NCBI RefSeq assembly: GCF_018350175.1
Contig: NC_058381.1
Span: forward strand, 23,436,001 to 23,500,000
Length of the DNA stretch: 64,000 nt
Source of the DNA: Felis catus
Lineage: Eukaryota
Direction of reading: 5' to 3'
Shown: in pieces, positions 4,900-13,072 of the stretch
Numbering within the stretch: the stretch's first letter is position 1
Layout of the letters: the number at the start of each line of letters is the position of its first letter
Notes under the pieces: model-generated
Database searches by the model: none
The model's input: only the letters and a program-made list of their open reading frames with translations
What the model was told of the DNA's origin: nothing
Translations under genes and position numbers: made by a program

Positions 4900-5029
4900 T
4901 AGTAGTATTTTGTTATGTTGTTACGCCTTCTAATCTCAGGTGCACATAAGTTAATAACTTTGCTTAAAAACCTGACTGCTACACAAGATTTAATTTGAAG
5001 ATTCATTTATGCTGGGCTCTGTGTCACTC

Positions 5030-5390
5030 TACATCTGCCTTGTCCCCTTCATCTGCCTTTGTACATGTTGTTCCTCTGCCTGGAATTTTCTTCCACTTTG
5101 TGTGCCTTCTTATTAACCACTACTCCACTTTGGTACGAGCTCAGCAATCATGTCCTCTGAGAAGCCTTTTCTTACTAGCGCCCCTGCTCCCCAATTCTGG
5201 CTTTGGTGCCTTCTTTGTGACCCTTTGGTGTATCTCCACCTTAGCATCGATCAAAATGCCCTGCAGTTGTCTCTTTAACTGTCCGTCTGTCTCTGCCCCT
5301 CGCAGGCTCCTTGGGGGCAGGGCGGGCTTTATGTCTGCCAGCCTCAGCACAGTGCCTGGCACATACTCACTACTCCTGATGCCAAGCTGT
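5030..5390 (-). mobile_element. L2 relic (explains ORF 4995-5582)
   Basis: cctctgcctggaat...gctccttgggggcagg...cagcacagtgcctggcacat motifs. Confidence 0.7.
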
Positions 5391-5609
5391 TGCCCTCTTA
5401 TTTTCTGTCTAGTTGTGTTTTATATTGTTTACTGTATTAACTTGTTATGTAAACAAATTGCTTTAGCATGTTTTGATTGCATTTTGAAAACTATTTCTTC
5501 AACTGTCACGTTGGCATATTTACTTTTGGGTTTATTCAGAAAGTTGAGTTTCTTAGTGCATCATGTGAGTTGGCTGGAATAAATAGAATTTCATGTTTGT
5601 ATTTTTTAA

Positions 5610-5834
<225 letters not shown>

Positions 5835-6552
5835 TGAGCATAATACCAGGAAAGTCTTTGTTGTTTTCCCTGCCTTATCTGGTCTCATCTGAACACAGCT
5901 CTCATTACTAACAATCCAACTCCTGACTCGAGAACCACAGGACAGGCAGGAGGACAGAACACGGGCATATGTGAGTAGCAGGCTGAGAACGCTCACACTA
6001 GGGGCCCTGCTGCCTAGGGCTTGCTTGGAGCCTGAGCTCACTGACTTGTAGCCTCTGTATCCCTTTGGAGCTGCACTGAGACAGCCGTGGTTCTTTCCCT
6101 TTTATGGGAATGTTGATTGCCATGGGATTTATAATAGGAAAAAATCAAAAGCAGTTTAAACACTCAGTGGAATATCTTCGTCCATAATGGTTACGAAGAA
6201 TACATAAAGCTTAGAAAAATGTCTATGATAAGAACACATAAGAAAACTTGTGGGTGACCCTTCAAAAGTTCTTACAGGGTGAAAAAAATAAACAGGCCTC
6301 AGTTAAGCACAAAAATTTCAAACATCCAATATCCTGAGTAGTTATACCAGCAGGAAATTTTCAGATTAACTGAATCAGTAGCAAATGAGAACCTGCAAGA
6401 AAAATGGAAAATAAGGGGTGACAAATAAGTCAGTACTGAAGCCATTCTTGTAAGTGAAAGGAAAAATACTATAAAGGTTAAAAAATACATACATTTGAAA
6501 AGCCTCCCCCAAAAATAAATAAATAAGAAAAAAAGAAAAAAAGAAAAGAAAA

Positions 6553-9376
6553 GCCTCCGGCTGCGGGGAGCTGCCAGCAGGAGCTGAGGAGATCGTCCTG
6601 TGGAGTAAGTGGCAGGCTAGGTAAACCACCCGCACTGCAGCTGCCCAGCCAAGGGGACAGCGAACGTATGAGTTTGGGATATGAGTACAGAGAGGTTATG
6701 GAGTTGGATCTCATGAAAGTGGATTGAAATCTGTGTCATGGTGTTTATGTCTTTATAGTTTTTAATGTTTACATTTGCCTTAGAGTGCCATGAGAAATTT
6801 TACATGCTGCAAAGTGGTCCTCCTTGATTTGGGTACCTTTTAGATATGGTCTTGCTCTTTAACTTTGATGAATGCAATGCAAGAAATGTGATGAAAAGGA
6901 AACGTATAGAACTTCCTTCTGGAGATGTCCTAGCTCCAGGACATGAAGGTCCTGGAGAAATGGAAAAGCAGTCATCATTTGTAGGATTTAGAAAGATCAA
7001 AGTAATGAGTAGAACTTGTCAGTTCCATGTAATGGCAAGTGAAATGATTGTAGCCAGAGCTTTGTCACAGATTTTAGGTTAGAAAGGTGTAAAGAAGTGT
7101 GATCATGGTCCACAGTGAGCCTTAGTACACACCTCTGCAAACTGTCCCTGTGCACCAAGACACGTGCTAGAAGCAAGTGTTGTGGTCGGTGATGTCAGTG
7201 AGAGAGACTTTTTACAAAGACTCCTAGAAAGTTGTGTGCAAAACTTAAAAGTTCACATAAATGCAATGGAGCAGCAATCGTTGATCAGAGCTAGATTAAA
7301 AGGTATAGTCATGTGTAAAAGCTGAGTGGTCATCTGCTCAAAGGCTCGTTGTAAGTATAGAGTTGGATGCCTGAAACATGACAGTAGTGCATCTTGCTGA
7401 AGTGCACAGTGATGACAGTTTCAAGTTCATGGCAGCTCTGGTATGACCTAGGGTAGATTCAACTGGAAGCACAGTTTTTATTGATATGCTGAGAAACTTT
7501 CCAAAGAAAAACGGACAGAAGGAAGGGGACTGGACTCTTCATTCAGAACACTGGCAATAGATTACTTTCGGGAAGTTGCAGTATGAAATGTTAGAGTGAT
7601 TAATTCCAAAGGAGAAAACTTAGAAATTTCCTTTAGGATTTGGCAGTGGGCAGTACTTGGGAAATGGTCATATTTTTACATGTTGGAAATATGCTTCAGA
7701 AAGCACATCCTGTATGTTTCCAGATGGCACAGAGCAAATTATCAATAAAAATACCATGACTAATTTATGAATTTCTTCTATAGGATTTCTTTGGGTGTTA
7801 AAAGGGTAGATTATGTGGCTATAGCAAGACTTGATCTAGGGAACAAACTATGGGACAAACTTTCTTGGTACCTTGAGAACTATCCCAATTTTCAAATTTC
7901 ATGATTTTTTATTTCTCTTTTGGAGAGCTATGAAATGTGGAAACAAATCAAAATCTAGAGTAATAGCCCTATAAGGAAAGAGAATAAAGCAGGTTTGTAA
8001 CTATCATGAACTGGTAGGTAGTCGGGTTTTCCCTTATATGGCCGACGAAGAACAGATGGCCTTGACTTGGATATCTCCAAATCTAGAGACCCCGACACAG
8101 TGTTCAAATGCCCCCACCCTAAAGGCAACCAACTTTAGGAGTGTGATCAAATAAAGTTAACCTTGAACATGTGTGCGGAATAATCAGTCCTGGGACAAAG
8201 CTAAAGAAGGGAACAACCAAGTACATTGAAACCTCACTGCTACCCACTCCCAGCCACGACTTCTTTATCATCCTCCCAGGAAGATTGAGACCAAACATAA
8301 AAAAAGGAAAAACTAAGGACTAACTGAGCTACCTCTGCAAACGTTTCTGCCACATCCATAAGTAGCAAAAAGGGGAAAGTGTTTTCCTGTTTCATTACCT
8401 TTGAACAAGTCTTCATGTCCAAGGAAGTGAAACTACCCCCTGGTGAAACAGAGCACACTGATGTTTATCAGATTGGAAAGTCTTCATCCATCATTGTAAA
8501 TATTCAGACAATAAAAACTTAACAAAATGAGTTCTCTGGAGAGCTGCCCCTCTTAAGATTTGCTTGCACATCAGTAATTTCTGCTGAAAGTGCTGATCAG
8601 AACTGGTAAATAGTATATTAAATATTGATGTAAGAATCAGTGAAGCAGAACTTGAATGATTCAGTGTCATAAGTAGCTTTTTTTTTTTTTTTTAGCAACA
8701 GAGATCTATTAAACAAGGTTTAAAGGAAATTAAATCAGACCTATGAGAAATATCATGTGATATAGTATTATATTTTTCATAGATTTCCTACCTCGGTGAT
8801 ATATTTCAGTGACTTTCCTTTTGTTTTCATTTGTGATGGTCATGGATACTTTTACCTCTTAGGGTACCAAAGTTAATGAGGCTAAAAACTTTTGGCTTTT
8901 GAATATCAGTTCATTTCTTTCCACAAGTTGGTTTTAAATTGTAATTGCTTTGTCACCTGTGGGAATCATGATTTTTTAACTGCCTTATAAAGAAATGGAG
9001 GTTCAGCATAGCATACCTTTATTCAGACCTGCCATCTAATCAGGGGTTGGCAAACTATGTTTCTGTATGACCCATGAGCTAAGAATACTTTTATACTTTT
9101 AAATTGTTGTTAAAAAAAAAACTTTTTAAAATGGCATTCCATGCCATGTGAAAATTATATGAAATTCAGATTCCATTGTCCATAAGTAAAATTTTATTGG
9201 AATATAGTCATATTTATTCTTTATTTAGCATCTGTCTTGTCATGGCTGAGTGGTTGCAACAGAGGCTGTGGCCTACAAAGTCTAAAATATAAAGTAGGTG
9301 CTACTGGTCCTTTGCAGAAAAAGTTTGGCAGCCCCTTATCTAAGTTTTTGTTGGGTCAGCTGACTTGTGACTTGAG
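6553..9376 (+). pseudogene. GALNT1: Processed pseudogene (retrocopy) of polypeptide N-acetylgalactosaminyltransferase 1, inside a HEATR6 intron
   Basis: Intronless degraded homology from ATG 6790 (MRNFTCCKVVL vs MRKFAYCKVVL) through [61 protein letters not shown] (7611-7646), [20 protein letters not shown] (7863-7886), NVETNQ and KGNQL to a TGA at about 8286; many stops, frameshifts and deletions; followed by sequence resembling the GALNT1 3' UTR. The stem region fits GALNT1 better than GALNT13. Confidence 0.9.
9041..9337 (+). mobile_element. MER58B-like hAT-Charlie DNA transposon
   Basis: Termini caggggttggcaaact...aagtttggcagcccct, characteristic internal gtgaaaattatatgaaattc; degenerate TSD around atctaa. 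Confidence 0.85.
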
Positions 9377-9513
9377 NNNNNNNNNNNNNNNNNNNNNNNN
9401 NNNNNNNNNNNNNNNNNNNNNNNNNNNNNNNNNNNNNNNNNNNNNNNNNNNNNNNNNNNNNNNNNNNNNNNNNNNNNNNNNNNNNNNNNNNNNNNNNNNN
9501 NNNNNNNNNNNNN
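9377..9513. other. Assembly gap (137 N)
   Basis: N run. Confidence 1.
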
Positions 9514-10440
9514 TTCCTAACTTAAATGATTATGCTTGATTCTGAAGACTTATATTGTCATACTACAAATTTATTCTCAGAGCGGTAAATCTTTAGTTTT
9601 TTGTTTGTGAGCCCACTCTACAAAAGATGCGCAGAAATGATTTATTCCTTAGTTACTTGGAGATGATATAATTGAAGATTTTCTGGAGAACCTTTTTCAC
9701 ACCAAACTCAGATATGCTTCATGGTGAGCAAATATTTAGATTAGAATTATAATGTTGATTCCCCACTTTTTAAATATCTGGAAGTATTTAGTTGGTATTT
9801 TGGGGGGCTAGCCAAAGAGGGTACAGTATTATATAACTGGTCCTACATTTATCACCTGCATTCCATTATGGTTAAATTGGCTTTCTTTTTATTTTTTTCT
9901 TACCTGATTTTTTGTTTGCTTGCTTTTAATGTTTATTTAATCATTTTGAGAGAGAGTGTGTGCAAGCAGGACAGGGGCAGAGAGAGAGGGAGAGAGATAT
10001 GGGACTCAGTCCCACAACGGCGAAATCATGACCTGAGCCGAAACCAAGATTCGGATGCTTAACTGACTGAGCCACCCAGGCTCCCCTCTTTCCTGATTTT
10101 TAATACCACGGAATCATCAGAGTACCAATTGAAAGTAATGCTTTAATCTTATAAACAAAATTTTGCTTCATTGACACTTTTCCTGACAAGTACAGCAGAC
10201 CATTGACAAAGGTGCACATATTTTCCTTTCCTTCCATAAGGTTATAGTTAATAGTTTTCCTTTCTTTGATTATCAAATACTCTCACTACAGGCAGTATTA
10301 TTTTCTGTACCTAAGACTGTTTCTGAAAAATTGGATCACTAATGATGCCTGCCAACTTGAATGTGCACAAAGTTCCTAATATACTGTTTAATTAACTTCG
10401 AGCACTCATGGATGCTTCAGTGTCGCATGTTTGGTGTGAA
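9514..10440 (+). pseudogene. Probable continuation of the GALNT1 retrocopy 3' UTR (boundary uncertain)
   Basis: Non-repeat AT-rich sequence continuing after the N gap, interrupted by a SINE; no clear poly(A) tail or TSD found. Confidence 0.35.
9908..10086 (-). mobile_element. Can-SINE
   Basis: gagccacccaggctcccc end, (GA)n tract, TSD-like cctgattttt on both sides. Confidence 0.9.
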
Positions 10441-10738
10441 ACAGACTCTAGACTTGGGTATTTTTTTTCCTACCCCACGAGCTATTTAGTTCTCTCTTTT
10501 TACTTGGCCTTATGCTTGAATAAACTAGACTTCTAATCTTTTAAGTTATTCTCATGTTCATGATTTCAGGGTTTTATATTATCATGTAGCTTAGACTTAC
10601 TCCTTCCTGTAAGAAAACCTAACAGCAATGTGATAGAAGTTTTTTTAAAGTGAGGGTGCAAGTGGCCTAGTTCATGGCTACTTTTAGGACCTGATAGATA
10701 ATCTTATTGCCTCTAATTTTCTAATTAAAATGATCCTA

Positions 10739-10944
10739 GGGGCGCCTGGGTGGCGCAGTCGGTTAAGCGTCCGACTTCGGCCAGGTCACAGTCTCGCGGT
10801 CTGTGAGTTCGAGCCCTGCGTCAGGCTCTGGGCTGATGGCTCGGAGCCTGGAGCCTGTTTCCGATTCTGTGTCTCCCTCTCTCTCTGCCCCTCCCCCGTC
10901 CATGCTCTGTCTCTCTCTGTCCCAAAAATAAACGTTGAAAAAAA
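10739..10944 (+). mobile_element. Young SINEC_Fc-type SINE
   Basis: Near-consensus feline SINE retaining CpGs; perfect 12-bp TSD aaaatgatccta (10727-10738 and 10945-10956). Confidence 0.97.
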
Positions 10945-11028
10945 AAAATGATCCTAAATACTTCAAAAATTAAAAACAAAAATAGGAAGAAGGGGATTTG
11001 ACTCCTGATTATTAACTAATAAAGGTGA

Positions 11029-11334
<306 letters not shown>

Positions 11335-11655
11335 TAATTTGACTTAAGAATAGAAGTAACAATTTTATTTAAAGTTTTCCTATTTGTTTTATTTAAAGCT
11401 ATTCTATTAAAAAAAAAAAAAGCTATCCTATTGTGCCTCCTCGCTTGATCTTACCTATACTCTTTGTATATCCAAATAAATGATTTACTAAAAATACTCC
11501 CATATTTTTAGTATTAAGTTGTACCAGTGAGAACACAAGTGCAAGTCCCCTAAAAAAAGGACAAAAAAGAAAAAAACTGATTTTCAAATGAGTCTTCATA
11601 GACTTTTCTTTTTTAATTAAATGCTATAACATTTTGTGTCTGTGCTGTGGCTTAA

Positions 11656-11799
<144 letters not shown>

Positions 11800-13072
11800 T
11801 AGTTTAAAATCGATTGCTCTTTTGTATCAATCAAATCTAGATTATTAGTTTTAAAAATATTGAGAGCATTTTTACAGCTCTAAGGTATCTCTACTCATTC
11901 TCAAGTTTTCAGGGAAAGCAGCTATTGGTAGAAGCCTGCTTTTGACCCCAGAAGCCCCAGTGGACACCTGGAAGAAGTGAGCTGGAGAATTAATTGTAAA
12001 GATTAGTGGTTCTTTGCTGCTGCAGTGTAGTGACTTTAGAATTCTGGTTGAGCCAAGTGCAGGGGGCCGGCGCTGGGGGGGTAGGGGGGGCAGTGCTCTG
12101 GCACACAATACGTAGTTTCTATCCTTAAGGCAGAAGTAAGGATGTGTGGACAATCACATAGACATCATCCTCTCTTTGGAAAGAAAAACTGGAATATAAA
12201 ACATAACTGCTGTAAGATTATCTCCTCTGCAGTTTAGATAAAATTCCAGAACTTCAACTCCCCCACTTACTGCAGAGTCTTATTTCTTGTTATTTCCTGA
12301 CTTACTCCCACACGTGATATATCTGTGCTATAAACATTTGCCTAGAGAACATTTGTTTTTCTTTTGCTAGCAAGCAGGCAATGAAAGTACTATGTGGTCT
12401 GTTATCCAGACCACATTCTGATAAGTTTTTCAGTCAGAGTTCTTGAAGGCAGCAGTGATGTTTCTGTGACGTCATGGGAGGGGTACTAGACCTGGAGTCA
12501 GGCTGAGGGTCTGCAGCCCATTCCCATTTCCTCCATCTCATAACTGTGGCTCTGTCAGAACCGTCATTTCCTCCTAACAGGAAGACGTTGACCTACCTCG
12601 GAAGATTTTTATAAGGCTTAAAGGAGATGATAATGTATACACATGTATCACTGGACATCACGGTCCAGTTCACTTGTTTCACCAATGTGTAAAATGGGAA
12701 AGATAAATCTTGCCTTTGACGTCTCTCATGTCAGTGGCAGAAGTAAGATTGAAACAACTCAGGTCTTTGGGCTCAGTCCCCTGCTCATTCCGCTGCACCA
12801 GCTTTTCTTCATCTGTAAACTGAGAGGAGTGGACCATGTCTCACGTCCCTCCCAAGTGTCTGGCTTTGTCTTTCAGCATTTTCATGAATAAAATGGTCAA
12901 ACCCTCAGAAACTTGAAAGCATAGTACAGTGAACATGTGCATATCTCTACCTAGACTTAACAGTTATTAACATTTGTCATATTTGCTTTGTCTCTGCATG
13001 TATCTGTATACATGTGTATACATATGTGTGTATAAATAGGTATATTTTTGAACCATTTGAAAGTAAACTTCT

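Follow-up and report, generated by a model that had tools for sequence, protein, structure and literature searches.

The window, by which we mean the whole 64,000-nucleotide stretch of Felis catus DNA analysed here, carries the HEATR6 gene on its plus strand, and one intron of this gene houses a decayed processed copy of the GALNT1 mRNA, which is itself interrupted by later insertions (Table 1). A felid HEATR6 protein aligned to the window by tblastn in 16 segments, all on the plus strand, from position 119 to 26193; past the last HEATR6 exon (26200-64000) we saw only short stop-to-stop frames of at most 185 aa. The exon downstream of the host intron shows 100% identity to a large number of proteins bearing the name HEATR6 (120 listed of 505 matches), and the two flanking exons are joined without any inserted residue in 111 of these 120 homologues, the remaining nine being without the search motif. 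A search of the ESM Atlas with the host exon returned generic HEAT-repeat clusters only; synteny context for HEATR6 is available in PMC4184305. Of the 14 introns sized in the window the host intron is the longest, and the copy with its insertions (~4430 nt) takes up about 85% of it, ending ~65 nt upstream of the acceptor. The rest of the intron upstream of the copy (5830-6500) is partly A-rich and repeat-like; when checked as a possible L1 partner it matched only itself in a genome search that skipped very common words. Downstream of the copy, the acceptor region (10983-11046) consists of ~65 nt of sequence foreign to the retrocopy, with a weak, purine-rich pyrimidine tract and branch-point-like motifs at 10998-11018. 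Rfam gave no matches across 5000-12000.

Table 1. Features of the HEATR6 host intron and of the GALNT1 copy within it (window coordinates)
Feature	Positions	Strand	Basis
HEATR6 coding exon 5' of host intron (DUF4042 profile positions 1-59)	5639..5816	+	Pfam E 4e-16; tblastn; AG/GT borders
HEATR6 host intron, 5230 nt	5817..11046	+	GT-AG borders; exon joining in homologues
A-rich 40-nt secondary insertion at 5' junction of copy	6508..6547	+	Exact 11-nt duplication, 6497-6507 / 6548-6558
GALNT1 processed pseudogene, entire element with nested insertions	6553..10982	+	DNA search; local alignment; CpG-aware scan
Copy of GALNT1 non-coding exon 1 (CpG island), CpG-decayed; final ~30 nt align poorly	6553..6694	+	GC; shuffle test; CpG-aware scan
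Copy of 5' UTR portion of exon 2	6695..6789	+	Identity 74%, 95 aligned nt
Decayed GALNT1 coding region	6790..8288	+	Identity 77%; parent of 559 aa; best PDB match GalNAc-T1
Copy of GALNT1 3' UTR, ~2.05 kb, split by later insertions and N stretch	8289..10964	+	Identity 74%, 1768 aligned nt
Nested non-autonomous hAT-type DNA transposon, 296 nt	9041..9336		Terminal inverted repeats; 8-nt target duplication, 6/8 matching
Nested older SINE, approximate ends	9903..10092	-	Best 72% among 3 matches in 200 kb; empty site in parent UTR
ATTAAA hexamer retained from parent UTR, predicted polyadenylation signal of the copied mRNA	10724..10729	+	Alignment to parent
Nested young SINE	10739..10956	+	Up to 94% identity, 81 matches in 200 kb; 12-nt target duplication, 10727-10738 / 10945-10956
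A-rich end, 15/18 A, where similarity to parent stops	10965..10982	+	Alignment to parent
HEATR6 coding exon 3' of host intron	11047..11253	+	Pfam DUF4042 E 1e-22; protein identity

An earlier note, made from the letters of the DNA alone, had read the locus as an intronless, sense-oriented GALNT1 retrocopy within an intron of HEATR6, and the position and strand of the host gene bear out this placement. The eight GALNT1 motifs that it quoted are found in order on the plus strand, distributed over three frames, in a translation of 6300-8700. Apart from the window itself and a dispersed repeat, a genome search with the DNA of 6500-9376 recovered three matches on another contig, C27. Local alignment against 200 kb of this contig yielded 11 colinear exon matches for 6709-8853 (local E-values 4e-5 to 3e-50) and a further three UTR matches that cover 9558-10729. 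The gene found there (G000:C27:56828700-56957000) is intact, with 12 exons and an open frame of 559 aa. The copy is colinear with these 12 exons, which are dispersed over 128 kb in the parent, and has all 11 exon junctions joined (40 nt of spliced mRNA corresponding to 21-40 nt of the window), the missing parental introns measuring 686-63,090 nt each. The 5' side of junction 1/2 matches weakly (6/20 nt), and exon 1 was placed independently.

The same note had singled out GALNT1 from the other members of its family, and on this point several comparisons concur. Exon 5 of the parent matches GalNAc-T1 chains in the PDB with an E-value of 2e-39, against 7e-19 for the next family member, and one surviving frame of the copy does so with 9e-12, against 0.02. 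At the DNA level, the exon-5-equivalent part of the copy reaches a score of 137 with the GALNT1 locus and of 25-34 with the 11 other family loci compared, the comparison taking in 12 of the 18 family matches in the genome. The closest paralogue locus, with 81% protein identity and presumably GALNT13, scores 34. Both the 5' and the 3' UTR of the copy also match the GALNT1 locus. Thus, the parent is GALNT1 and not another GALNT, the coding sequence and the UTRs being in agreement. Among the 40 scored DNA matches and the 18 protein matches, both of which are lower bounds, there was no second GALNT1 retrocopy. Three other matches to the GALNT family (C41:14355858, C27:939183 and C21:67809432) contain an in-match stop, and may represent exon ends or further pseudogenes.

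The copy is full-length, representing ~3.9 kb of mRNA from the CpG-island first exon through the coding region and ~2 kb of 3' UTR to the ATTAAA hexamer. Its first-exon portion has a GC content of 61%, compared to 31% upstream, and its plain alignment score to exon 1 was reached by 0/2000 and 1/2000 shuffles. Under plain scoring a second site in intron 1 of the parent was tied with exon 1; CpG-aware scoring, by which the parental CpG island ranked top of 122 windows (score 84.5 versus 35 for the next), dropped it. At the other end, the earlier note had correctly seen 3' UTR-like sequence after the coding part, but its end point at 9376 merely marks where an N stretch begins: the UTR homology picks up again at 9514 and continues to about 10965, making the element ~1.6 kb longer. 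The N stretch (window 9337-9530) consists of 137 letters, compared to ~30 nt between the same anchors in the parent; hence ~100 extra bases lie there.

Similarity to the parent ceases ~20-35 nt past the ATTAAA, inside the A-rich tract that ends the element. This tract is likely the remnant of a poly(A) tail, albeit a short and ambiguous one since the parent is also A-rich at this point. No target-site duplication of the retrocopy was detected: the best candidate (6397-6420 versus 10975-11000) was rejected as being at chance level, its score being reached by 504 of 1000 shuffles. Erosion of such a duplication is to be expected at this level of divergence, and a later insertion has additionally struck the 5' junction.

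Four later insertions interrupt the copy: 1) the A-rich piece at the 5' junction, whose 11-nt flanking duplication takes in the first bases of the retrocopy and which is likely the tail of an extremely 5'-truncated young SINE; 2) a DNA transposon; 3) an older SINE; and 4) a young SINE that carries its own AATAAA at 10927. The parental UTR has an empty site for the transposon, which we take to be MER58-like. A search with this element returned 509 candidates, of which 40 were scored, indicating a high copy number. It differs from 24 other copies by a K2P distance of 0.33, and those copies differ among themselves by 0.35 (276/276 pairs). This puts the age of the copies at ~0.17 per lineage, below that of the retrocopy; the estimate is biased low because the copies compared are the best matches. 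MER58 is given as a hAT family in a human Repbase list (PMC5753468) and is also reported from carnivore introns (PMC3088541), and the MER58d subfamily is 19.9% diverged in human (PMC1914374).

As the copy lies on the same strand as HEATR6, we considered whether, though dead as an enzyme, it might act on its host, either through an intronic poly(A) site (at 10724 or 10927) or through a cryptic exon, in both cases producing truncated HEATR6 transcripts. The ATTAAA sits in a well-kept stretch ~320 nt upstream of the purine-rich acceptor, a ~75-nt segment bounded by AG...GT is present near 9652-9725, and retrocopies that donate exons or UTRs are known (PMC2584115). Nevertheless, identity around the ATTAAA is 0.77, which is within the 0.63-0.83 of the other UTR portions, and intron-derived sequence was present in none of the 120 HEATR6 homologues; these were chosen by the downstream exon, and therefore cannot reveal isoforms that end before it. 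The segment at 9652-9725 was rejected as a HEATR6 exon: it derives from the GALNT1 UTR, the exons on either side of the intron are joined directly to each other, and it is absent from the HEATR6 homologues. A cDNA copy, furthermore, does not include the element that lies downstream of the poly(A) site in the parent, which counts against an effect on the host. On balance we judge such an effect improbable. The bolder proposal that the copy was recruited as a switch for intronic polyadenylation, tuning or truncating HEATR6, and was tolerated across placentals for 100 My for that reason, appears to us more doubtful still. If it were true, the copy would have enlarged the intron more than five-fold and placed a poly(A) signal ~100 nt before the acceptor prior to the SINE insertion, and the young SINE beside that signal would alter the switch in this lineage only.

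With regard to the product of the copy itself, the earlier note had pointed to an in-frame TGA at 7323-7325, the change of the D-A-H motif to K-A-R at 7341-7349 and an ORF remnant of 78 aa. All three are present: the stop replaces Q203 of the parent, the K-A-R aligns with D209-A210-H211, and the remnant, which starts at 6846, is the longest ATG frame, the frame from the parental ATG having only 17 codons. The damage extends far beyond one stop and one motif, with 44 indels, of which 29 shift the frame, and nine stops among 461 aligned codons (all of them alignment-dependent figures), and the breaks are distributed across the whole coding region. By alignment, the codon for H344 has additionally become AAT at 7688, encoding N. 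Hence D209, H211 and H344, which we take to be the Mn ligands of the enzyme, have all been lost, being replaced by K, R and N respectively. These three residues are entered in the binding-site table of PMC3960557. Pfam glycosyltransferase and lectin domains were recognized in none of the four fragments scanned. Thus, with no open frame, recognizable domains or metal ligands left, the copy cannot encode a GalNAc-transferase, as the note had concluded.

Comparison of the copy with its parent gave differences of 0.20, 0.27 and 0.24 at codon positions 1, 2 and 3, and, away from gaps and under three gap settings, a dN of 0.25-0.27 and a dS of 0.48-0.50. The pairwise dN/dS of about 0.52, along with the full length of the copy, its CpG-rich 5' end and its location inside an expressed gene, might be taken to mean that it was formerly a working retrogene for a second GalNAc-T1, which purifying selection maintained for a while before its death. 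This we consider very unlikely, as a simulation combining a neutral copy branch of 0.28 with a parental synonymous branch of 0.10 (a fitted, not a measured, value) reproduces the observed dN and dS. The same ratio is thus obtained from a neutral copy and a constrained parent, and a period of selection on the copy is not needed. Against a working past there also stand the second codon positions, which differ most, and the occurrence of breaks all along the coding region. Because the parental branch was fitted, a short early phase of selection would be compatible with the pairwise dN/dS taken alone. The divergence of the UTR is 0.23 at A/T and 0.32 at G/C sites, compared to 0.18 and 0.28 at non-degenerate coding sites; the UTR has diverged more, and accordingly displays no excess conservation. 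The substitution pattern of the copy fits neutral decay from the start, and it was likely dead on arrival. The parent GALNT1, for its part, seems slow even at synonymous sites (fitted branch of ~0.10 versus 0.28 for the copy).

The overall divergence of the copy is about 0.25-0.28 per site, and the branch from carnivores to the placental ancestor is ~0.2. Since the transposon is nested inside the retrocopy, the latter must be the older of the two, and the clock agrees (~0.17 versus 0.25-0.28). The divergence and the nested hAT-type transposon together suggest that the copy originated near or before the placental radiation, on a calibration from general background; its age in years, which depends on the same calibration, is likely ~100 My or more.

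That the element might instead derive from another GALNT such as GALNT13, from a DNA-level duplication or from an assembly artefact can practically be dismissed in view of the paralogue scores, the UTR matches to GALNT1, the absence of all introns and the occurrence of all sampled words of 6560-8660 in 14 of the 24 listed sequencing runs (5 studies), the source sample possibly being among them. Of the sampled words, a fraction of 0.08-0.78 occurs in six RNA runs; these consist of metatranscriptome contigs in which host DNA or HEATR6 pre-mRNA cannot be told from a transcript of the copy's own, and they were given no weight as evidence.

We are highly confident of the following reading: the locus is a sense-oriented, full-length GALNT1 retrocopy that was likely inserted by LINE-1 about 100 My ago or earlier and likely dead from the start, and that is now likely spliced out with its intron and devoid of function. 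In the proposed course of events, LINE-1 proteins would have reverse-transcribed a full-length spliced GALNT1 mRNA in the germ line, and the cDNA would have been inserted into a then small HEATR6 intron, directly 5' of the branch-point region. The insertion presumably did not block HEATR6 splicing and became fixed; thereafter the copy would have decayed neutrally, and it would now be removed with the intron from the HEATR6 pre-mRNA. LINE-1 is the likely agent by analogy, being established for this class of elements, and the lack of function is likely judging from the decay.

The copy may be viewed as a fossil of the GALNT1 transcript: when it was made, a start inside the CpG island, the present arrangement of exons and a 3' end located ~2 kb into the UTR were already in use. 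Its four nested insertions of graded age furnish a tidy neutral clock, and its presence or absence might serve to mark early branches of the placentals. It also illustrates that a gene can tolerate 4 kb inserted in sense orientation and reaching to within ~65 nt of a splice acceptor. The copy would gain in importance only if its poly(A) or splice signals are used by HEATR6.

A human processed pseudogene with the same parent and mode of origin, GALNTP1, was reportedly described by Meurer et al. in 1996; it is said to be a separate, younger copy on human chromosome 13, and not in HEATR6. The name GALNTP1 had no match in the literature searched, nor was any paper found there that links retrocopies to intronic polyadenylation, and in that on GALNT1 pseudogenes or retrocopies and on pseudogenes in HEATR6 introns we found no description of the present copy. 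One retrocopy pipeline applies a 75% identity cut-off (PMC4558860), and RCPedia requires 120 matched nt plus exon junctions, so that it may list the copy. With an identity of 74-77%, which straddles the former cut-off, it is plausible that annotation misses the copy.

With the LINE-1-mediated processed pseudogenes of mammalian protein-coding genes the copy shares the absence of introns, colinearity with a spliced mRNA, a location on a different chromosome from the parent, an A-rich 3' end and a disabled frame, features described as hallmarks of the class (PMC7692494, PMC2584115). It differs from most catalogued members in being older (dS of about 0.5), full-length and with an unrecognizable target duplication; mammalian retrocopies are reported to peak at low dS (bioRxiv 10.64898/2026.06.26.734816). 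An intronic location is common, being seen in 2,492 of 7,831 fixed human retrocopies (~32%; PMC3554589, Table 2). With intragenic same-strand retrocopies, which according to PMC3554589 and PMC4558860 track the expression of the host, it has in common its position inside a host intron, and is distinguished from intragenic retrocopies by the large share of the intron that it occupies and by its proximity to the acceptor. It is thus an ordinary representative of a class that is well known, and notable only for its age, its completeness and its tolerated position.
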